A stretch of DNA of 64,000 bases, from the NCBI GenBank assembly GCA_964016885.1, contig OZ024742.1, positions 260,958,001 to 261,022,000 on the forward strand, given 5' to 3'. Source of the DNA: Eledone cirrhosa (lineage: Eukaryota). A program made the position numbers and the translations under genes. Below the pieces are notes generated by a model that made no database searches, was not told the DNA's origin, and saw nothing but the letters and a program-made list of their open reading frames with translations. Shown here in pieces: positions 15,637 to 56,452 of this stretch; positions within the stretch are counted from its first letter, which is position 1, and every line of letters starts with the position of its first letter.

Positions 15637-15761
15637 CATCAAGATTCCAGAAGTTACTGCCATTGTAGAAGACACAGAATTATTGCCTAAATGGAAGATT
15701 ATAGTTTTAAACTTGTCCTATTTTGGGTTAAACCTCATGTATTTACTTCTTTTTGTAGAAG
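15637..15761 (+). CDS. MFS exon 2 (SIKIPEVTAIVEDTELLPKWKIIVLNLSYFGLNLMYLLLFVE), TM1
   Basis: ttttag| and G|gtaagt; open frame, hydrophobic helix. Confidence 0.88.
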
Positions 15762-17503: not shown

Positions 17504-17584
17504 TCATACCTTCACAGCTTACTGGTTTGGTCAGTGTAAAAAACAAAGGTATCTGCCTTGGTGGAATGATAGCTGGAGGTGCTG
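17504..17584 (+). CDS. MFS exon 3 (VIPSQLTGLVSVKNKGICLGGMIAGGA)
   Basis: ttctag| and G|gtaagt; phase 1/1. Confidence 0.88.
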
Positions 17585-20047: not shown

Positions 20048-20153
20048 TTGTCAAATTTATACTGGGCCCCTTAATAGGTATGTGGAGCGACCAATTGCAG
20101 CTGAATAGTGGGAAACGTCGGCCATTAATGATTGCAGGGTCAGTTTTGATAAG
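20048..20153 (+). CDS. MFS exon 4 (VVKFILGPLIGMWSDQLQLNSGKRRPLMIAGSVLI), motif A of GPH/SLC45 type
   Basis: tttcag| and AG|gttagt; G.WSD......G.RRP signature. Confidence 0.93.
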
Positions 20154-22122: not shown

Positions 22123-22167
22123 TTTTGGTCTAATGGGAATGGCTGCTAGTGGCCCAGATACTGTCAT
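22123..22167 (+). CDS. MFS exon 5 (SFGLMGMAASGPDTV)
   Basis: ttgatag| and AT|gtgagt; phase 2/2. Confidence 0.85.
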
Positions 22168-24174: not shown

Positions 24175-24211
24175 CTTCAACAAGGAACTGGTCAATATTG
24201 TGAACGGAACA
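24175..24211 (+). CDS. MFS exon 6 (IFNKELVNIVNGT)
   Basis: tttccag| and ACA|gtaagt; bridges phase 2 to phase 0. Confidence 0.82.
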
Positions 24212-25491
24212 GTAAGTTTACTTAAATGAATTGTGAAAACAAACCAATTAAGGCCAAAACATACTTCCGCGTTGATCAATTGCTGATCCTTTACAAAGCT
24301 CAAGTAAGATTTACATTAGAATACTATTCCAACACATAGGACAGTGCTGTTGCTTCTGCTGCTACACACATAAAAACAACACAAACCACATCCAACAGAA
24401 GGATATCCAACTGATTGGCAAACACTTACTCTCTAACAGACACACTATCCTATTGATAGTATAACAGATACACTTCCTTTCAAGCTGCAAGTTTTTTATC
24501 ACCTTCATTCAAACATCTTATGAAACATCCATAAATAATCCTCTGTCACTCTTAGTGTCATACTTCCCAATCTTTCTTTACCATGACATCAACCTGCTGA
24601 AATTTGCTCACCACCGAAAAATCTCTTACAATGTTGATTTACAGGTGTTCAAATTGTTTAAGCCTCATTGATTTCTCCAATTTTGGGAGATAGTGTTGAG
24701 TGAGGACCAGTGGTGGTGCTGTAAAGATCATTGCCACTTCCTCTTCTTCCCGACTAAGCAGTAAAAAAAACATAGGAGAGAAATATTTCTTTGCCATATT
24801 TCTTTTTAAAAAAGTATTGCTTATAATTTTCAAGTTATAACTTTGAAAATAAACAAGAATTTGGAGCATAACATAAAAGTTCTTACATAAAATTATGATG
24901 AAAAGTGTTTTGATAAATACAAACAATTTGAAATAAACAGTTTTGTATCACAAATCTTAGGGCTGTTTCAGGTGATTTGGTACCAAAAGGGTTAAAGGTG
25001 ATTGGAGAAATTCCTCTTATTGGATTGTATTATAGTTATACAACTGCCAGAGCTGTTAGGGAAGGAAAGTACGGTGAATTTACTGGTTGAAGAAACATCA
25101 ATTCATACTCTACCACTTTAATTTGTATAGTTCTTATAAAAGACACAGCATTTGATTTTCAAGTTATTTTGAAAATAGTCAAGAATTTGGAGGGATTTAG
25201 TAACTTTCTCATTATTAAGCTGGTGTTTGGAATATAATTTAATGAAAGTTCTTACATAAAATTGGATGGAAGATTTTTAGATAAGTATAAACAGTGATTG
25301 CAAGGGATATGCAAAATCTGGAGAGAAATGAAGTGAGAGAGAAACTGGGTATAAGAAGAATCAGATGTAGTGTACAAGAGAGAAGATTGATGGATATGTG
25401 ATGCACATGGATGATGATCGTTGGGTGAAGAAGTGTTAAGAAATTCCAGTACACTTTGTAAAGTAGTCAGTGTTAGGAAGGGCTTCCAGCC

Positions 25492-25760
25492 ATAGAAACC
25501 ATGTCAAAAAGCATTGAGAGGACTCTCCAGTTATAACATAACAACTTCTCTAGTGCTGGTCCCCCCCAAAATGCACTTAGTACATATATGGTAGTTGGTG
25601 ATAGAAAGGGTATTTAGCTGTAGAAACCATGTCAAAAAGCATTGAGAGGACTCTCCAGTTATAACATAACAACTTCTCTAGTGCTGGTCCCCCCCAAAAT
25701 GCACTTAGTACATATATGGTAGTTGGTGATAGAAAGGGGATTTAGCTGTAGAAACCTTGT
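25492..25760 (+). repeat. Near-perfect ~129-bp tandem duplication within an RTE-tail/SINE relic
   Basis: tagaaaccatgtcaaaaagcattgagagg... occurs at 25492 and 25621. Confidence 0.85.
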
Positions 25761-26125
25761 CAAAAAAGAGTCGAGAGGCTTTCAATTATGTCAAGGGTAT
25801 GACATCCTCTCTAATATTAATGATCTACACGATAAATGCACCAAGTGCACTCTATAATGTAGTTGTAGAAAACCTGACAAACAAAGGGTTGTGAGGACTC
25901 TTCAGCTGTGTCAAAGACATGACAATTTTCCTAGTGCAATGATAAAATGCACCCAGTGCACTCTGTACAGTGCAGGAACATATGTAAGTGAGGTACAGTC
26001 CCTTGGCCCATCTAAGAGGTCAGTATCTCTAATAGAATACTGACTTGGTTTGTGAGGATCCATCCAACCTCCGCTAGCAGAGAAAATGAACATTAAAGGA
26101 TGATGATTATGATAAATGTATGTAT

Positions 26126-26212
<87 letters not shown>

Positions 26213-26272
26213 CCAAAAACTACAGGGATTGAAGGTTCAAGACCTTAGGGGTATGTCAAATAACCAATCTCT

Positions 26273-26339
26273 TATGTTTTATCTGATGAAAGCGTACTCA
26301 AAAACCATTGTATCCTTGAAATATGTATAATAAAATATA
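26273..26339 (+). ncRNA. Minimal type I hammerhead ribozyme motif (PLE-type)
   Basis: tatgttttat-CTGATGA-aagcgtac[12 nt]gtatcctt-GAA-ATAtgTAT-A-ataaaatata: 10-bp stem I, 7/8-paired stem II, short stem III, AUA cleavage triplet. Confidence 0.75.
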
Positions 26340-26399
26340 TACTTTGGTTATGAAAATATTTCTCATTTATTAATATTTTGAATATCATATATATATATA

Positions 26400-27040
26400 T
26401 ATATATATACAAAGTTGTATTCCTGTCTGTCTGTTTGTTTGTTCACGAACTCCTCCTATGGTTTTGGAGATAGACCCCCATAACCATACATATTCTGAAA
26501 CTACATTGCCCAGAGTACTTGGATAAGTATATTTCATTTTAATCAACGGGTTCCCCGCTGAAAATTTTTTCCCTTCGGTTTATATGAAATTTAAACCATA
26601 GGTAAATGACAAGATATGATGCCTATTCACAAAATTTCAGCAAATTTCAATAATATTAAGACACCCTAATGGGTTAAACCCCCTGTTAGGGTTCCCCTGG
26701 GGCACAACCCCCGCTGAAAATGTTTTCTCTTTGATTTATATGAAATTTAAACCATAGGTAAATGACAAGATATGATGTCTATTCACAAAAGTTTTGAATT
26801 GATATTTTGAAAAAAATTATTTACAAGAAACAAAATAAGAATAAGATTTAATAATGCAATTTTGATTTGATATATTACAAAAAATGATGTTTTCCAATTT
26901 TTCATGCATTATATTTTACATTGAGTAATATTGAAATGAAGAGTTTTTCTCCATAAATTATATCACTGATTTAAAATCAATCATCATTTTCTTACAAAAA
27001 AAAATGTGTGAAACGCAGCAAGGCGCGGGTAATTTGGCTA

Positions 27041-27041
<1 letters not shown>
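26400..27041 (+). mobile_element. Non-autonomous Helitron-like element
   Basis: 5' (TCTG/TTTG)n tract; 3' GC-rich imperfect hairpin cgcagcaaggcgcggg followed by CTAG|T at 27038-27042; internal ~80-bp duplication (26553, 26708). Confidence 0.7.
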
Positions 27042-27077
<36 letters not shown>

Positions 27078-27080
<3 letters not shown>

Positions 27081-27552
27081 TAGGAAAGAAGGTTGACATG
27101 GTTTGCTATACAAAAAAGGTTTTTAATCTCATAGCTGACAATTGTTTCTCTGAACTGGTAGGTCTAGAGATCGCTATTCGCTTATTTTCGCGTTACTCGA
27201 TCGCCAATACAAAATTATAACCAGTCAGATCTTCGGAGCATGCGAGAATGAAGAAAATACACAGGCAAGAAAAGAATATACAGGCTACTATATGAAGTAG
27301 TAATGGCATTCAATTAGGTGGGGGGTATAATGTATCTAACGTTACGGCGTGTAAAACTAGCTGTCATGAGGCAGAAGTAAGAGTTTGGCATGTACAGAGT
27401 ATCGAAGTGTGTATCAATTTTAAATTATAAAGATAAGCCAGTGTTTACAGTCTTTCTCTTCATCTTCAATAGTATACATGAGTGGGACAACACTGTCAAA
27501 GCTAAATAGTTGTTGAGTTAATACAGAGGTTAACAAAGTAATATACGCATAT

Positions 27553-27615
<63 letters not shown>

Positions 27616-29625
27616 CACATGCATGTGTACATAGACACATACATACACATCAATATACACTCGTACAAAAATATACATACATGCAAAGAGATAAGCGTGC
27701 TAATTGTAATTATTGCAAAAGGAAGGTAAAGTTACATTGTAGTAGTGATGTGAGAAAAACTAGGATTTAGGATCAAATGATGGCAGCAGCTGAGAAGGAA
27801 TAAGTTTGTGGGTAGATGAGGTACTTACAGACATTTGTGTGGTATAGACTTGTGAAGGATATAGTATACTTAATGAAAATTTCTGTGGGTAGTAGGTATC
27901 CTAATTTAAAGCTATGTTGTGTTGGTTCGATTCACGGAGGTTTGAATCTTATGAATTTAGTGGCAATTCTATGTCTGCAGAAGATAGATCTTTCTAACTT
28001 ATTGTTAAGTAGCCTTTTTACATTTTTGAGGATATACAATAGCTCAAGATCACATAGCCCGCAGTGGGACATCCCTGTACTATAGGTTTTAGCAGCCGAC
28101 AACTTCGACCAGTTGATACTGTAGTTAGTGCTACTGTCCTTCAGTTCCCATATTTTTTTGGCGAGGGTTGTGGAACCCATAAGTGCACGGTTTTTCATTG
28201 AGTGTCTGTGCACATACCATTTTTTTTTAAAAGAACTCGCGGTGGATCCTATGTAATTCCAGGTGGAATTACCCGAGATGACCGTGCACATGTACACTAG
28301 GCTCGAATCGAGACATCTGTTCGCCAATGGGTACCTATCTGGTAGATGACAGTTACAGTTTGAGGCGCTATTTTGTGCAGCTTTTACATTCCTGTTTAGT
28401 ACTCTGTTATAAGTGGGTTGTGATATATGCCCAATGGGGTTTTGCTGCTGCGCGTTTGTATGCGCTTGTGGTTGTGATGTTGTGATGTGTTTGTGCTTAT
28501 AATTAGGTGCTACGTTATGTATAGGTGCAGTTGATTTACTAGAGATATTTCTGTGGTTGATCTTGCGTATGTGTGATTCTATGTTTGCTGCTGTTGAGTA
28601 TGAGAGTTTTATAGTAGATCTATTGAGTATTTTGTGATATCTATGCGAGATAGGGAAGTGTTTATCTATTAGTTTAAAGAATGTAGAGGGCAGTCTAGTT
28701 TTTATAGAGGAGTTGAATATTGGGTTGAACCATAGGTATTTTCTTTGTCTGTTTCTTCTATTGTTTCTTGGGTTTACATTATTAGTGTTTTGGCCGTTTA
28801 CTCCAGGTGTTACGTGTCTAACCCTATGTCTAGTCAAGTTATTTCTATTATTATGTGAGCGGTTGGAGTAGTAATTACTAGGATTGTTTACGTTGTCCTT
28901 ATTCACTATATACTGCAGTTTATCTTTATGACCAGCCCTACGTAATGCTGCATTATAATAGTCAGCATGCTCGTTAAAGATTTCTAGGTTTGAGGATAAG
29001 CGGGATATTCGGAGGGATATACTACATGCTATGGACCTAATTATGGATTTGGGGTGATTTGAGTTGTTAGTCCTTCTAGCCGCTATTATTATTTCAATTT
29101 CATCATGGGTAAGATCAGAGTTATTTTGGGCAAATATAAGCACCTTATCTAGGGTAGCTGGGGATATGGATGCATAGTAGTCGTCTATATCAAATTGTAT
29201 GAAGTTACACGTCTCCTATTTTGTATTTTATTGAACCATTTAATTGCCTCGTTAGTGTTGCCCCATAAATTGATTTCTAGTTTACCCTTTATTTGTGTGA
29301 TTACCCTATCTAGAATGTTCTTGCTAATTTTACCTATGTTTTACTTGGATGGGCATATTAATCTAATGGTGGGATTAGTTTCAAAGTTATTTTTGTGATC
29401 CTTCAGGTTAAATGTTGGGTTGCACGGGGTTAGCGGTTCGGTCCTATCTGGAATTCCGAGTTTATTAACTATCTTGAGGCCCTCCATGTTAATGCTGGTG
29501 AGTGTAGATTCATTTGTTTTTTTATATTTTTTATGTAGTTCACGCTGGATAAAGTTATTGTATGTGTTAATGTCCATAGAGTATACGTTTGATGTTTTGT
29601 CTGCTTTTACTATGATACTGTTAGT
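27078..29625 (-). mobile_element. Penelope-like retroelement, 5'-truncated and with the RT core deleted, within (TA)n
   Basis: GIY-YIG domain (LVYMC...YIGST...CGLC...LLN...CRH) in ORF 27932-29143; N-terminal RT pieces (LKDHK...NPTIRLI; DIDDYYASI); hammerhead in the 3' pLTR. Confidence 0.92.
27128..27246 (-). ncRNA. Hammerhead motif in the PLE 3' pLTR, with U4C core and extended stem II
   Basis: ctcgcatgct-CCGAAGA-tctgactggt...accagttcaga-GAAAC-aatt-GTC-agctatgag. Confidence 0.72.
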
Positions 29626-29682
29626 GGAATACCATAACTGGACTTTACCTAAGTGGACTGCATTTAACTATTATTTGTTACC

Positions 29683-29736
<54 letters not shown>

Positions 29737-29864
29737 ATATATCAATGTCAAAACGCTTATCAGCACAGCAACAGATAGGAACAACAACAAAATATGAATA
29801 CGTCCGAGAGCACGCAGGGAGGCGGAGAGAAATTAGACAGTAGAAGTCGCATTGATAGACACAT

Positions 29865-30515
29865 TTTTCAAATGCAGGAGGGCGCTATAGAAGTGGTGGA
29901 TAGCTTCCGGCACCTAGGAGATCAGATTAGCATGGGAGGAGGGTGTTCCGAAGCCATAGTATCTAGAATAAGGACGGGTTGGAAGAAGTTTAGGGAGCTG
30001 CTTCTTCTGTTGACGAAGAAGGGTTTCTCCCTGCGTACAAAAGGCCGGTTGTATGATGCCTGTGTGAGGAGCACAATGCTGCATGGTAGTGAGACATGGT
30101 AGTCAGCAACTGCAGAGGATATGCGACGGCTGGAGAGAAATGAGGCAAGCACGCTCCGTTGGATGTGCAGTGTAAATGTGCGTGAAAGACCCAGCATAAA
30201 TGTGTTGAGAGAGAAACTGTGTCTGAGAGGGATAGAATGTAGTGTACGGGAGAGGAGACTGAGGTGGTATGGACATGTGATGCGCATGGAGGATGACCGA
30301 TGGGTGAAGAAGTGCCAGGAAATGCTGGTTGAAGGAAGACGTGGTAGAGGTAGACCACGAAAAACATGGGCGGAGGTGGTGAGAACAGACCTCAGATCAT
30401 TGAAGCTCACGGTGGAGATGACGAAGGACCGTGACGAGTGGAGAGATGCTGTGCTGAATAAGACCTGTCCCACCCTTGCAAGCAGGGAAAAGTGGACGTA
30501 AAATGATGATGATGA
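29865..30515 (+). mobile_element. RTE 3' fragment, young
   Basis: EVVDSFRHLG...MLHGSETW*...RLRWYGHV...GRPRKTW; (GAT)n tail. Confidence 0.93.
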
Positions 30516-31245
30516 TATATATATATATATATAATGGTCGTGGAGGTGCCATAGCAAAGGAGCACCCAGCACTCACTGTAAATGAGGTTGGTGTTAGGAA
30601 GGGCATCCAGCTGTAGAAATCAAGCCAGCATCACTTCCCGTCCCACCCTTGCAAGCAGGGAAAAAGCGGACGTAAAATGAAATGATGATGATGATGATGA
30701 TGATGATATATATATATACATATATACATATATACATACTATGAAGGTGTGTGGCTGAGTGGTTAGAGAATTGGATTCACAATCTTGAGGTTCGATTCCT
30801 GGACCGGGCGATGCGTTATGTCCTTGAGCAAGACACTTTATTTCACGTTGCTCCTTCTACCTGGAGTTGCAACCGATAGATAGTACTAGCAACTGGAAAG
30901 ACCTGCGGAAACATTGTTTCCTTGGTCCGATTTGACGAAAGTCGATCGTTCCTTTTATATATATATATATACACAGTGAACTTCTGCAAATTTCCTCTAT
31001 GTAACTTCACTGGTGAACCTGAGGTTATAGCAGAAGACACTTGCCCAAGAGTGACACCAGAACCATGCTGCAAATCAAACTCCTTAACCACACAGCCATA
31101 CATATACCTTGCTAAATTTTTACATCTTTATTTTTTTTATATATTTTTTTTTCTTTCTTAATTTATTTCTTCTTATTTTCCTTTTTCTCTTCCTTTTATT
31201 CTTATTTTTTCTTTGTTTTTCATTTTACATTCTTTTATTTTCCAG

Positions 31246-31402
31246 TGTGTCCGCAGTTTGGAGTTGAAACGCTGTGGACCCTACAATACTACTCAGAAAT
31301 CCCAGTCACAGGGGAAGCTAAAATTAGTGTCAGTCCCTCAGAATTCTTTCAAGAATGAATACCATTTGCTGAGTATTCATTCCCCATTTGCTGGCAATAC
31401 AT
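31246..31402 (+). CDS. MFS exon 7, hydrophilic loop (CVRSLELKRCGPYNTT...PFAGNT)
   Basis: Long polypyrimidine tract, tccag| and T|gtaagt; phase 0/1. Confidence 0.85.
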
Positions 31403-33674: not shown

Positions 33675-33776
33675 TTCTTTATGTTACTTTCTACCTTGTG
33701 GTCACCAGTGCTTTTGTCCTCATAACAGTTCCTTACAATGCCATGGTGGCAGACAAGTCTCATCCATCTCAGAGAG
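33675..33776 (+). CDS. MFS exon 8 (FLYVTFYLVVTSAFVLITVPYNAMVADKSHPSQR)
   Basis: ttgtag| and G|gtaaga; PY.A..AD.....QRG motif. Confidence 0.92.
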
Positions 33777-34701: not shown

Positions 34702-34778
34702 GTTTTATATCTGGTGTAATGTCAACCTTAATTTTGGTGGGAAATGTCTCAGGTGCTGCTTTAGGAATATGCTACGAA
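34702..34778 (+). CDS. MFS exon 9 (GFISGVMSTLILVGNVSGAALGICYE)
   Basis: ttatag| and GAA|gtaagt; Gly-rich TM helix. Confidence 0.9.
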
Positions 34779-43128: not shown

Positions 43129-43243
43129 ATTGTAGGTGTTCTCACTCTCTATATTTTGATGGCAACCATCATTATCATATGTGTCTTAATCACTATATCA
43201 GTTATCAAAGAACCAATTTCTGACAAACAGCTGCAACCTTTCA
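43129..43243 (+). CDS. MFS exon 10 (IVGVLTLYILMATIIIICVLITISVIKEPISDKQLQPF)
   Basis: ctacag| and A|gtaagt; TM6 followed by the KEP motif. Confidence 0.92.
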
Positions 43244-44021: not shown

Positions 44022-45746
44022 CAACAACCACAGCAACAGTGGCGGCGGCAGTAGTCGTAGTACCTGCAGCAACAACAAAAGTAACAGCAGCTCTGACGAC
44101 AACAACAACAACAACAGCAGCAAAGAAAAACCAATCTCGTTTGCAGGTATCGCAAAGAACCTGGAAACCATCCTCATAACAAATGAGGAATTAGAGGAAG
44201 CGAAGAAGATGGTGACAAAATCAGGACACCGAGCAATCTGCAAGGCAGCCGAAAAAATTTTCGAAACCCAACAGCACTGTACGGTCATGTACCGTACAGT
44301 AAGCACAAAATCCCGTAGGGTTGAAAGAGCCACAGAGGCTCAAATACAAAAAGCCTTGGGGTCTGTGTGGCAGCGGAAAACGTACATCACCCGGGGCAAG
44401 AAATATACCACCGTAGACGGGCTTTTTGCCACACCCCAGGAGGCAAAGGCTCAATCCTTAGTGACCCCAAGGAGCGAGGAAATGGTATTGGTGCCCTCTT
44501 ACTGCGGGCAAAAAATTGTGAGGGTCAAACTGACCCCCCCCCCCCGGGATGGCCCCTTCTTGGCTGGTCGCGTCTGTCCTCGTCGGAATCGAGGACAAAA
44601 CAACTGTACTGCAAGTACAGTAAAAAGTAAGAGAAGATTGGGTCGGCACCTCCATTGAGATGCTAATTCAAACCAACCAGGAGTGCATCGAAGCTATCCC
44701 GGATGTGATAGACTTCGATAACGGCACTCAACTGCCCATAAGTGTTGAGGGCAAACGCCCGAAATGCTTTCGCTGTGGATCGAAGACTCACCTCAGGGCC
44801 TTCTGCAACGAGAAGACCCTGAGAAAGGAGAAACCCCCCCTCCTTCCGAAACCGGCTCCACGGCTACCAACAACAGGACAAGCGGCAACCAGGAACGATA
44901 GGTCCGTGGCACCCATACCCACGCCACGGAAATCAAAAACAGCAGCAGCAGTGTAAATATTAACAACAACAACAGCAATACCAAATGCAGCTGCAACAGA
45001 GACTCCAGTGCAAACATCACCAACAACAAGAAGTGAAAGAGTGGAGCTGGTACCCCTCCCCGACCTCACAGAATCAGACATGGAATGTGAGGTGGGAGAG
45101 GGATGGCAAAAGGTCGTAAGAAGGCACAAACGCAGAAGCAGCGCATCGTCGCCTTTGAAAAGGGAGGAAAGAAATGAGAAAAGGGTAAAGTCTACTGCAA
45201 AGAGACTCACAGCAGCAACACCACCAACACCATCACCACTCACACTAGCACCACCATCACCACCGGCGACAACTCCACCGCCAACAACACCTTCAACACC
45301 ACCACCACCACAAGCACCAACATCGCAAACACAACAACAAAATACACACACCCAGCAACAACGACAAGAAAATAGCAGAACCACACCCCACCCCCAGAAA
45401 AACAAATGCACGGCAATAAATACACACAACAAGAAACTAATGACTTACATAATTGAACACAGACATTTCACAACACGACTACATAATACCAGCACCAATC
45501 AAAACGCCAACTAACATAAGACTGCTAAAAATAGCACAGAAACAATACACAAACATTAAAACGAAATTCCCCAACGCAGTTGGTGATTTCAGGGACCTAG
45601 GAGGAACTATCAATCGAAGAGTATATTCGGACATACTCATAGAAGAGCCGACGACCAGCCGAAGGGACGATTCAACGGTCCCTTCACCAGACGATCAAGT
45701 GAAAAGGGATGTAAAAACAATCCCTCCTCTACGAAAAGTACGGTAA
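43624..45746 (+). pseudogene. Tx1 ORF1 (gag-like, CFRCGSKTHLRAFC CCHC knuckle), disrupted
   Basis: Frameshift at the C-run near 44534-44545, in-frame TAA at 44954; S/N-rich and P/T-rich low-complexity regions; starts at TTG rather than ATG. Confidence 0.75.
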
Positions 45747-45781
45747 GTGGTCTTTCCCATCTTTTCCACTCTATTTTAAAC

Positions 45782-48700
45782 ATGACCTCACTCAGAATAG
45801 GCAGCATAAATGCGCGTGGCTTGGGGTCGTCATGGAAGCAGGGTCACCTGCTCAACGACCTCAGGTCACTAAACATAGATGTAGTGGCCATCAGCGAGAC
45901 CAGAATCTCCGAAGCACGGGCCTTCGCACCGATCTTCGGCGGCTACGATGTGTACGCATCTCCCAGCCGTCCTGGATCGGGGGGAGGAGTTGCTGTGCTT
46001 TTTCGGAGAGGTTTGGATCTCGCCATACGGGCCATCTTCCTGGACCCAGAGGGTAAGCTGGTGGTGCTGGACGTGACCAGCGGAGACGGGCAAGCTTTCA
46101 GGCTAGTGGCCGTCTATGCCCCGACAGGAGCAGGGCGGCCTGATTTCTTCCGGCGTCTGGAGACCTTTCTTGGAACGTCCCGCTCTTTAGTGTTAGTGGG
46201 CGACTGGAACGGGATCTTAGATGCACACTGGGACTGTGTGGGATTAGCGGATAGGGGTGGAGGGTGCAAGAGCCTCACCAACCTGCTCAGGCGTTTTGAA
46301 CTGTCTGACAGGTACCGATTGGATTTCCCGAATGTGCCAATGTGGACTTGGACAAATCGCGTAGGGTCATCCAGATCATATCTAGATAGAGTATTTTGTA
46401 GGGAAATAGATAGGTCTAGCATAGGCTGTCCACAATTCAAGATAGTCAGCTACACGGACCACAAATTCGTGATCTGTGTGCTTGACTTAGATAGGCTTCA
46501 TAGACGAGGACCCGGCTACTGGAAGCTAAACGCGTCCTTACCAGCGCGCAAGGCCTACAGAGACCGGATTAGCGAACTAGTTAAGCGGGCGTTGACGGGG
46601 GCCATCGTCAACAACAAGTGGTGGTTTGCTCTGAAAAGAGCGATTAGAATAGAATCCATTAGGTTTAGTAAGGCTTTAGCAATAGAGAAAAATAGAGCAG
46701 AGGGAGAACTAGTTAGAAAATTAGACGAGGCGCTTAGCAAAGGCATTGCGACCGACGTGCTTGCGGCGAAATTGGCCCTTGACCAATTCTTCAATGCAAA
46801 GCACGAAGGCTGCGTTGTCAGAGCAAGGGTGCGTGCTCTCAGACACGAGGGGACGAAAGCCGTTCAATGGGCCCGAGTGGCGGAGGCGCGTCGTGGCAAC
46901 AAAGCCACGATCCGGTCTTTGGTGGACCACGACGGGCGCATGCTACTCGATCCCGGGCAAATGTGTGAAGCTTTTCAGCGACACTTCGCTCAGCTGTTCG
47001 GGGGCAGCGGTGGGCCGGGTCGAGGGATGGACTTTAGTGTCTACCTCGACGGACTGCCGCTGCTCTCGGCCACTGAGGCGAAGTGTTGCGAAAAGCCGAT
47101 AACAGCCGCTGAAGTAAGGGAGGCAATGACTGGCTGCACAAGGGATAAATCGCCTGGTTTGGATGGTCTGCCCTATGAACTTTACGTACAGATGCCAGAC
47201 TTGTTCGGAGGCCTCTTGGCGGACGTCTACTGCAACTGGCAACAGAACGGGAGAATTCCTAGTTCTGTGAGCCGAGGAGCGGTGGCACTGCTGAGAAAGG
47301 ATCCGAACAAGTGGGATAACATAGATAATTTCCGGCCCATAACTCTGCTAAACACAGAGTTCAAGATTTTGGCCAAGGTGCTAACTAAGAGGTTGGCGCT
47401 TGTCGTTGGTGGTCTGGTGGGAGAGGCGCAGACATGCGCCATTCCCGACAGATCCATCCACGACAACCTCCACCTCATGCAATACATCGTAGAGAGGGTA
47501 GCTAGGGAACCTGGCACGGGTGGGTCCTTGATCAATTTAGATCAGTCGAAAGCTTTCGATAGGGTCGACCATCGTTACCTAGCGGCAGTCCTGAGGGCGG
47601 CTGGCTTTGGGCCCGTCTTCAGAGGCTGGATCGGTGCCATGCACAGCGACATCTGCTCTGTGGTGAGAGTGAACGGTCACCTGTCAGAACCGTTCAACAT
47701 CATGCGCTCGGTCCGCCAAGGATGTCCCCTCTCGTCCCTCTTGTACGTATTGACTCTCGAGCCATTACTGCACAAACTGGAGACGTTGAGGGGCGTCCCG
47801 CGCGAACTAGGATGCGGAAGATCCGTGTCAGCATATGCGGACGATGTCACCATAGTGGTGTCAAACGCCAAACACATCGAGGCGATCGGCACTACACTAA
47901 GAGAATACGAAGCGGTGACAGGAGCAATGATCAACCAGGAAAAGTCAGTGGGCCTGCAGCTCGGCACCTGGAGAGGCAGGTCCATGCCATCCAACAGCGT
48001 CGTCGGACGCTGGACGGACGGACCGGTTAAATTGCTAGGGGTCTGGTTCAGTCCGGACCTCCAGACGGACAAAAACTGGGACGAGGTGACGAGCAGGGTG
48101 GCTTCTCTCACCCAGAAATGGGCGGAGAGGAAGCTATCCCTGAAAGGTCGAGCGGAGGTGGCTAACGCATACAACGCGTCTGTCATCTGCTACCGCCTGC
48201 CCGTCGTACCTTGTCCTAAGCCTCGCCTGACTGCGCTGGAGTGTTTGCTCTTTCGCTTTTTGTTGAAGGGACGCGCTCCAATGGTCAGGCGGTCCATCTG
48301 TTGTCAACACCTGCTACGTGGAGGGCTGGGCATGCCGTGGCTGATGATGCTCAGGCACGCGCTCAGGCTACGACATCTCCACCTCTTCCTCGATGGTGAT
48401 CAGGTGTCGTCGCCGTTTGCTAGACACGTATTTCCCCAGCTCGTTTCCTTGACGGAGCTGCAGTCCTGGGTCAAGCGAAGACTGAGAGGGAGCGCCTGGA
48501 GACTGGAATGTCTTCAGGCGCTCACAGCCCTCGACTAATCGAGCAATGTGATCGGTGGAAACTCCACCTCGGCGTTCTATAGAGGATTAGTGGAGGGGAA
48601 GAGCGACGACGTACTTGGGGAAACTCTAGGCGTCGACGAAAATCAACTAGCCAATCTCTTCGGAAGAACTTTCGGGCCAGGGCCTATGGACAACTTCCAG

Positions 48701-53860: not shown

Positions 53861-56452
53861 CAAAGGTTCTCAACGGGGGGCATATGCAGGGGACGTTTTG
53901 GAACTCCAGGGGGGAATTTTGGAACAAGGGGGCATCAGGGGGCGCTAGGGGGCACTGGAAGGCTCTTTACTTTGGTAAGTTTTATAAGCCATATTTGTAT
54001 GTCTCTGAGACAGCCAGTGTGAATGCATTTGAATGAGCATGCAGACAGCATAACTATGGTCTGACTGCAGCTGTTAGCAGGTGTGCAGGCGTGTCTAAAC
54101 ATTAACCGGTAATTGAGATCCTAAAAATGGAAAAAACCCACAGTCAACTGGGTCAAGGACACTTTGAGCGCAGCCAGTTAGAATATTGTCTTTGCTTCAC
54201 CAATAACAATGTATTTCATGTCTGAAATTATTGACTCAACTGTAACGAGTTAACACTATGTAGATCTATTTTATTCCCTATTGTATAAATAATATTACAA
54301 ATAAAAAAGAAAAGAAAAAACACAAAAGCGGGTAGCACACACATCTAGGACTACATACAACACATAAGCAGGTAATACACACATCTAGGACCACATACAA
54401 CTCATAATCAGGTAGCACACACATCTAGGACCACATACAACACATAATCAGATAATACACACATCTAGGTCTACATACCACACATAAGCAGGTAATACAC
54501 ACATCTAGGACCACATACAACACATAAGCAGGTAATACACACATCTAGGAGCACATACAACACACAAGCAGGTAATACATACAGCTGGGACCACATGCAA
54601 TACATAAGCAGGTAATACATACATCTAGGACTGCATACAACACACAGGGAGGTAATACATACATCTAGGACCACATACAACACACATTGTATCATGTGCT
54701 ACGGATGACGCAAGAGCAATGGTCGGTCAACCTAAGGGTTTCTTCACTCTTCTGAAGAGAGAAAATCTATCTGTATTTGCTGTTCATTGTGTCATTCATC
54801 AACAACACTTGGCTGCAAAGAAACTCAGCAAGGAATGCTGTGAAAACATTCCTGGTCAAATTGAATGTCATCGAAAGGAATCTTTGTTGACGGGAATTCT
54901 ATAATTTTCCTAGTGTCGACAATGTTCAAAACATTGTAAGCGATGACCAACTCCAAATTTATACCGCTCACTTCTGTGCTCTACAAGACAACATGAGAGA
55001 ACAGTTTGTTGACCTTTTGCCGATGGACATCCCAATGTGGATAGCAGATCCCTTCATAGCTACTGCCGACGATTTGGACGTTAAATTTCAGGAAGAATTC
55101 ATTGAACTTCAAGCAGATAACATGATCAAAATTAGATTTCCTAAAATAGGTGAACCCCTTTTTTGGATGCAAGAGGAAATTCAGCATCGATTTCCACTCC
55201 TACATGCAGAGGCTAAGAGATTTGCTCTGCCTTTTCCAAGCTCATACTTAATCGAGAGGAGGTTTGGTGCAACCGCTACAATGTAATTACACGTGGAGAT
55301 CGCTAGCTACATCTTACGAAAATTCAGCCTCATGTCAAAGAGTTAGCTAGACTCCATGAAGCTCAAGGATTCCATTAAAATGAGGTCAAAGTTAAACTAA
55401 GTTGATTTATCCGAAAACTTGGGTATGCTATTGTTACAAAGCAAACTAACAATTTTTTTTATTTGTAGTTGCAGTCTGACTGTAATTCACTTACTCATTT
55501 GTTGTATATATTTTACCATTTACTAATAAATATACCCTCTTATATAGTCATGAAAACCCTCTTCCACGGTCTCTAAGTTCACAAAGAGGAGGGGACATCA
55601 AGTTAGATATCAACATTTATTCTGTCTGTTTCAATAAAAGGAAAATTGGAAAGCTTTGAAATGATATAATTGCCACGTTCTTCCAGATAAGACCACTCTT
55701 TGGATAGACAGAGTTGCTCTTGTATAAATGTTCAAAATAGCCTGTATCGCCTGGTGGGAATATAACAAATTCAACTGGTCCTTCAGCAGCACCGTTTTAC
55801 ATCCGTTCTTCCATGCTAGCATGGGTTAGACAGGTTGTCCTGTTGTGGGCAGTGTCCGGTCGGCTGACCTTGTCTTGCTCATACTGGAACTGATTCTGGC
55901 TTGATTTCTACAGCTGGATGCCCTTCCTAACACCAACCTCATTTACAGTGAGTGCTGGGTGCTTTTTTCCGTGGCGCCTACACGTCCACTTTTACAGTGT
56001 GGGCTGGGTGCTTTTTTTGCCATGGCACCTCCACGACCACTTTGCAGTGGAATGATAGGGACCCCAGTCCTATCATCTCATTTCTACAGCTGAGTAAACT
56101 GGAGCAATGTGAAATAAAGTGAAACAACACATCACCCAGTCCGAGAATTGAACTCACAACCTTTAGATTGCAAGCCCAATGCTCTAACCACTAAGCCATA
56201 CGCCTTCCTTATTCATAAAAAAGAACATTTATGTTACTTTTTTTGAAATTTATATATTTCCTTTCAAGGAATGTATTTATACTCTCAGCTGCCTGCAATG
56301 GTATCTTTGGAATATTGTTAATCAATTTTTTAGTAATCGACTGATATCAAAATCATTAGTATATTGAAAAATGGAAAAATAGGGTAGGGGGCGTTTCGTG
56401 ATTTTGAGGGACAAAAGGGGGCGTTTGGCCTAAAATGGGTTAAGAACCTGTG
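53861..56452 (+). mobile_element. hAT (Charlie/Buster-like) DNA transposon, internally deleted
   Basis: 8-bp TSD ATCTAGAC on both sides; TIR CAAAGGTTCTCAAC / GTTAAGAACCTGTG; remnants TDDARAMVG, HCVIHQQHL, FPSSYLIERRF. Confidence 0.92.
54320..54690. repeat. 40-bp minisatellite (~9 copies) inside the hAT element
   Basis: Unit cacataagcaggtaatacacacatctaggaccacatacaa. Confidence 0.93.

Follow-up and report, generated by a model that had tools for sequence, protein, structure and literature searches.

The window analysed here, a 64-kb stretch of DNA from Eledone cirrhosa, carries on its + strand a predicted gene for an MFS-type transporter, one intron of which holds a hammerhead motif in sense orientation. 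The gene is traced through eight exon candidates (15637-15761, 17504-17584, 20048-20153, 22123-22167, 24175-24211, 31246-31328, 33709-33776 and 34702-34778), which have AG/GT ends and consistent phases and so link into a chain that starts at 15637 and stops at 34778, and further candidates occur at 43129 and 63186. The chain is a prediction, since a full-length host homologue was not obtained, and 31246-31328 is its least certain member; no hydrophobic exon turned up before 33709, where one was expected. One of the six exons scanned gave a weak match to MFS_2 (E 0.009, below the cut-off), and the Atlas assigns MFS_2 to the same exon. The intron in question, of approximately 7 kb, is predicted to span 24212..31245 (+), between the candidates 24175-24211 and 31246-31328. 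In placing the hammerhead on the sense strand of an MFS intron between exons 6 and 7, the preliminary description agrees with this model as regards strand and intron, whereas its numbering needs an extra upstream exon, which was not found. Two of the candidates, 22123-22167 (45 nt) and 24175-24211 (37 nt), would be micro-exons, and joint skipping of 24175-24211 and 31246-31328 would preserve the reading frame.

The same region also holds other repeats. A second, different Hydra-clade element occupies 27932-29690 on the opposite (-) strand of the same intron; it retains an open, endonuclease-containing frame (27932-29215, 427 aa), its RT is internally deleted, its 5' end lies at a (TA)n tract, and an intact hammerhead core was not found on its own strand. 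Another very high-copy repeat, with an internal duplication, occupies 26410-27030, immediately behind the (TA)n tract that closes the hammerhead unit downstream. Further downstream, yet still inside the host gene, 45587-48535 (+) is an open frame of 983 aa whose endonuclease and RT features are those of a non-LTR retrotransposon; low-complexity frames lie ahead of it. A weak tRNA match (33 bits) at 56137-56200 (-) is possibly the head of a tRNA-derived SINE.

The unit that contains the hammerhead, described beforehand as a piece of about 180 bp between (TA)n tracts, is indeed bounded in this way: the upstream tract, detected by TRF, extends over 26119..26210 and is the likely insertion target, the downstream tract over 26389..26410, and 26211-26388 lies between them. 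The first 8 nt (26211..26218, - strand) are the reverse complement of the extreme 3' tail end of the element discussed below, and probably represent a minimal inverted arm, a reading that is likely rather than proven because an 8-nt match is short. This stretch belongs to a 22-nt exact reverse match to the tail of one sister copy (L029; E 1e-5), of which 14 nt are TA repeat, and longer inverted tail pieces are present in L007, L011 and L030. The remaining 170 nt (26219..26388, +) form a direct piece of a pseudo-LTR (pLTR), without the tail of about 100 nt found in other copies.

Sequence and fold of the hammerhead

The hammerhead itself, read from the letters and with a type I descriptor, lies at 26260..26351 on the + strand. 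Stem I (26273-26282/26330-26339) consists of 10 pairs, one of them G-U, and is extended past an internal loop by an outer helix Ib (26260-26267/26344-26351) that is absent from the preliminary description. It leads into the catalytic core CTGATGA (CUGAUGA in the RNA; 26283-26289), which is followed by stem II (26290-26297/26310-26317, as a whole 26290..26317), where seven of eight positions are paired around one C-C mismatch and a 12-nt loop. GAAA (26318-26321) then overlaps an 8-nt quasi-palindrome (26321-26328) that would provide a stem III of 2 bp in a monomer and of 8 bp in a dimer, and the AUA triplet (26327-26329) places the predicted cut after 26329. All of the earlier claims on core, GAAA, 10-bp stem I, one-mismatch stem II, quasi-palindrome, triplet and cut position can be read from the sequence in this manner.

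The site displays the features of a type I hammerhead, namely C3-A9, G12-A14, A15.1-U16.1, H17 and a three-helix junction. The window copy departs from the highly conserved, non-invariant G10.1-C11.1 pair, closing stem II with A10.1-U11.1, and it also carries one G-U in stem II where 36 of 43 copies have the C of a G-C-type pair. The A-U closing pair is the rule in its own family (41 of 43 copies of family A), and G-C is found in the related subfamily B. The characterization of the motif as an intact minimal hammerhead needs to be qualified for the 10.1-11.1 pair, and "minimal" is loose wording for a motif in which a 2-bp stem III is present.

The descriptor finds no other site in the window, and over 100 shuffled windows its yield was 0.02 sites per window if a stem I of >= 4 was required, with no site left if the requirement was >= 8. 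Comparison with shuffled sequences shows that the 93-nt motif folds unusually well (z -2.88, with 3 of 200 shuffles as good) and that the full 178-nt unit folds no better than they do (z -0.59). In Rfam, the hammerhead was unmatched both at the gathering score and at E <= 10. The window copy differs from the family majority in only 2 of 106 columns. None of the contigs from three runs, all of one sample, extended across the insertion.

Copies, parent element and copy ends

A search of 3.0 Gb of genome for the exact 21-nt motif that spans stem I, core and stem II yielded 4,137 matches (2,074 + 2,063), with none for the control, and the copy number called for in the preliminary description is therefore high. 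With the window unit as query, 757 candidates were obtained, the 40 of them that were scored being 90-98% identical, and dispersed sister copies of the unit reach 96-98%. Subfamily B, with 1,247 candidates (loci L051-L075, e.g. L052:1539-1647), has about 75% identity to the window unit; it is younger, its copies being 97-99% alike, and it combines G10.1-C11.1 with a perfect AU palindrome, which in the monomer is predicted to misfold by pairing with AU sequence downstream. The arrangement of the copies does not support the tandem organization that had been considered, since TRF detected no head-to-tail array of the unit in the window, and among the first 100 listed matches of the 21-nt motif, counted by eye, all six pairs less than 1 kb apart are inverted. 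Within 264 kb around the site, the descriptor gives nine hits on both strands (5 +, 4 -). The sole related sense copy in this region lies 185 kb downstream, no same-family sense copy being found from -50 kb to +185 kb of the site, and a decayed antisense copy lies at 171 kb. Eight descriptor hits of other families, at up to 214 kb downstream of the window start, are likewise spread over both strands (L088-L090, L098, L099), and one motif occurs three times among them.

The identity of the parent element emerges from the DNA upstream of the unit, more than 1.2 kb of which is common to two copies and was used as a query that recovered 20 loci. In 15 of these (13 of 18 once the two loci from which the query was taken are set aside), the unit lies 1.2-1.7 kb downstream of an endonuclease remnant on the same strand, and the frames of linked loci contain RT and GIY-YIG remnants, as judged by motifs. 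An RT followed by a C-terminal GIY-YIG domain in an open frame linked to the unit is a feature of Penelope-like elements (PLEs), as are the direct pLTRs of locus L076, the inverted arms of L077 and L041, and a tail at a single end. L076 shows the partial tandem in full: a pLTR with hammerhead and tail, a 5' UTR, the RT-endonuclease ORF, a 3' UTR and a second pLTR, the direct repeat being 208 bp at 91%. Within PLEs, the Hydra clade is indicated by a CxCX5C linker and by CxxC and CxH around a conserved E and N (in the translations of L041 and L050), by DKT, and by insertion into (TA)n; the Hydra RWK motif appears as RWR in L076 and L077. By eye, the RT pieces also follow the Hydra rows of the supplementary alignment in the available part of PMC8557442. 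Because Pfam and PDB searches with pieces of the ORF gave nothing significant, the clade assignment rests on motifs and by-eye comparison rather than on a tree. The longest matching open frames in family loci measure 279-345 aa, and no intact copy was seen among those examined.

By its sequence, then, the window unit is a 3' pLTR piece of a Hydra-clade Penelope-like element, and the earlier idea of a solo PLE pLTR is supported and narrowed to this clade through the RT/GIY-YIG linkage, the motifs and the tandem in L076. The family is a new one of a known clade, and the locus an ordinary one; searches of the literature for cephalopod or general PLE hammerheads showed no paper on the family, and bioRxiv supplements could list it.

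The ends of the copies are informative as to how they arose. Of 30 family A loci, 10 possess the tail of about 100 nt that follows the unit, and in several copies this tail has a fixed end point before (TA)n; an inverted partner accompanies 6 of 30 loci in A and 10 of 25 in B. At the other side, the 5' ends of 12 of 30 A copies and 17 of 25 B copies fall into a cluster approximately 110-120 nt before the scissile bond. As these queries favour whole-unit copies, the search was repeated with only the DNA downstream of the cut, whereupon 16 of 30 copies started in the same 28-nt zone, six of them at one base, 3 extended far upstream and 11 started between the zone and the cut. No copy among the 30 started within 5 nt of the cut, the nearest starting 8-10 nt upstream. 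These end sets consist of top-scoring copies, overlap (L100, L110 and L128 are repeated) and hold a few duplicated loci. The shared 5' boundary, which is known from DNA ends, is most simply read as the trace of transcription that starts within the pLTR and of an RNA that was reverse transcribed without having been cleaved.

A donor-like site, GTATGT (26251..26256, +), follows this boundary after about 40 nt and could mark an intron of the element's 5' UTR. Of the copies examined, 23 of 26 in family A and 25 of 25 in family B retain it, and the tail retains a motif that ends in AG; together they would make the hammerhead part of an intron in the element's own 5' UTR, which is offered as a lead. 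Spliced genomic copies of this putative intron were sought with two exact junction patterns and gave 0 matches, a weak result, since the patterns were exact, one acceptor was assumed, and Penelope also retrotransposes with its intron. In the host, the insertion has brought the same sense donor-like site (GG/GTATGT) into the MFS intron, where it could act as a cryptic donor.

The element's endonuclease would nick (TA)n and its RT copy an RNA, and for most short copies the template probably began inside the pLTR, some 110-120 nt before the scissile bond. This template was likely uncleaved, because the copies span the cut site. It is with this picture that the notion of a retrozyme-like relic has to be compared, in which the window unit would be the monomer of a non-LTR retrozyme spreading via circular RNA. 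The unit is short, non-coding, present in high copy number, equipped with a type I hammerhead and provided with a shared 5' boundary, and the available part of a preprint (10.64898/2026.07.22.740005) proposes that retrozymes derive from PLE pLTRs. Retrozymes, however, are recognized by at least two head-to-tail hammerhead units, which the window does not contain; the close pairs are inverted, the unit and a coding PLE are collinear, and the ends of the copies examined are off the cut site and not circularly permuted. The retrozyme interpretation is therefore largely refuted and retains very little probability.

Possible cleavage of the lone copy and its consequences

Whether the lone intronic copy would cut its host transcript depends largely on stem III. 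Predicted pairing probabilities are 0.8-0.9 for stems I and II and near 0 for stem III, and ViennaRNA assigns the active monomer fold a share of 2.7e-4, which is a lower bound because the program ignores tertiary and magnesium stabilization. For the window copy, a double hammerhead is 2.6 kcal/mol better than two monomers, for L029 and L052 it loses to two monomers, and in none of the three is it the cofold minimum. Changing G10.1-C11.1 slows cleavage; a measured effect of such a change was not found in the available portions of the hammerhead literature. Single minimal hammerheads of metazoan PLEs are described, in the accessible text of PMC4209133, as giving no cleavage and dimers as giving low cleavage, with which the dimer requirement raised in the preliminary description is in accord, and cleavage of PLE hammerheads as dimers is attributed to Lunse et al. 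in the part of a review consulted (PMC6765202). AUA is a working, slower triplet in natural hammerheads (PMC1636495). Little cleavage is likely in view of a stem III of two A-U pairs, an A-U pair at 10.1-11.1 and the absence of a same-family sense partner within 185 kb, and low or no cleavage of the lone copy is judged probable. Cutting would be expected of precursors that are tandem or multimeric, in which the palindrome would join two hammerheads into a double hammerhead with an 8-bp stem III. In the lone copy stem III amounts to two A-U pairs, so that most of the host pre-mRNA would undergo splicing without being cut.

The lone copy, with the same origin, could nevertheless self-cleave modestly as a monomer, so that part of the host pre-mRNA would be trimmed or destabilized, a side effect not subject to selection. 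The intact core, the near-majority sequence of the window copy, its stable stems I and II and its sense orientation with respect to the predicted gene are all consistent with this proposal, and, according to the accessible part of PMC7229834, a monomeric hammerhead of axolotl whose stem III has 2 bp reached 22% cleavage in one hour. Against it speak the two A-U pairs of stem III with their negligible predicted pairing, the replacement of the highly conserved G-C by A10.1-U11.1, and the fact that 0 of 30 copies start at the cut site; monomer cleavage of this kind is rather unlikely.

The pattern of substitutions indicates at what level the ribozyme has been kept. Across 44 distinct copies, 94% of cells are paired in the named structure, as opposed to 33-54% in slid controls, and two stem II pairs have changed on both sides, which reflects two inherited events and not many. 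Families A and B differ in 0 of 12 core columns and 21 of 80 others (two-sided p 0.06, with two B copies in the alignment). Private variants within family A are as frequent in the core (13/516, 2.5%) as elsewhere (79/3440, 2.3%; p 0.75), and core or stem III is broken in 14 of 43 copies, the other 29 being intact. Structure and core are thus kept between subfamilies while private variants are neutral, which argues for upkeep of the ribozyme in the lineage that transposes and for its decay once a copy has inserted; the window copy owes its intact state to its youth, and there is no sign of anything special about it or of selection on it within the host intron. Domestication of the hammerhead as a host regulator of the MFS gene, in the manner of the conserved intronic ribozymes of amniotes, could be read into its sense orientation and intact core. 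A copy so close to its dispersed sisters is, however, too young to show selection, decay across copies is neutral, and with nine descriptor hits on both strands in 264 kb a sense intronic hammerhead is commonplace here, so that such a role is hardly credible. The accessible part of a bioRxiv preprint (10.64898/2026.07.22.740005) gives 42-44% of Xenopus retrozyme copies as intronic, with some depletion, from which it follows that intronic copies are common.

The data are thus best explained by a 170-nt, non-coding end piece of a Hydra-clade PLE pLTR, one of more than 4,000 copies, inserted in (TA)n of a predicted intron, whose hammerhead probably shows little or no cutting in that place, being predicted to need a second copy; the probability of this reading is estimated at roughly 0.87. 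Since thousands of dispersed copies have one stem III palindrome in common, it is also conceivable that the lone copy is activated in trans by short sister RNAs started in the pLTR, which would pair with it as a double hammerhead and cut the host pre-mRNA. This is given a very low probability; if true, retrotransposon expression would act as a genome-wide cutter of introns with sense copies. The family is of modest use for the open question of the role of hammerheads in Penelope-like elements: instead of the cut site, the ends of the copies mark a shared boundary upstream of the ribozyme, and this suggests retrotransposition of an uncleaved RNA, and family A, with more than 4,000 copies and A10.1-U11.1, forms with its younger sister B, with G-C, a natural pair for a comparison of cleavage.

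Comparison with known systems

The Hydra clade, as set out in the available text of Craig et al. 2021 (PMC8557442), comprises Penelope-like elements with a C-terminal endonuclease and includes Hydra-1_Obim of Octopus bimaculoides. The present family shares with it the order of RT and GIY-YIG, the CxCX5C linker, CxxC/CxH around E and N, and DKT, as well as (TA)n insertion, a type I hammerhead in sense orientation close to the 3' end, arrangement in partial tandems, arms that are inverted and 5'-truncated, and a single-end tail. It is a family other than Hydra-1_Obim, because its hammerhead sequence is unlike the one listed for that element in the part of PMC8557442 at hand. Differences from the same source concern the stem III loop (a 4-nt palindromic centre here as opposed to 1-3 nt), RWR in the copies read in place of RWK, a unit spacing of about 3.7 kb in L076 in place of less than 3 kb, and a tail of about 100 nt, compared with the 30-40 nt described for Naiads and Penelope.

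The PLE hammerheads described by Cervera and de la Pena (2014; PMC4209133, available part) are likewise of type I, with a long helix II and a palindromic stem III, and occur mostly as single dispersed copies, with opposite-strand pairs 100-700 bp apart. Those of the present family differ from them in a 10-bp helix I with an outer helix, in the lack of an extra nucleotide separating positions 9 and 10.1, and in the prevalence of A10.1-U11.1 in family A. Metazoan non-LTR retrozymes (accessible parts of PMC7229834 and 10.64898/2026.07.22.740005) are also short, non-coding, numerous and provided with a type I hammerhead, but the window unit is without a tandem array, its ends are not set by the cut, and it is part of a coding element. 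Finally, the pLTR of Drosophila virilis Penelope has, in the available text of Schostak et al. 2008 (PMC2377424), an internal start site with a splice donor 46 nt downstream, to which the shared 5' boundary seen here, with its conserved donor-like site about 40 nt later, bears a resemblance, in an element of a different clade whose start site and intron are deduced from the DNA alone.
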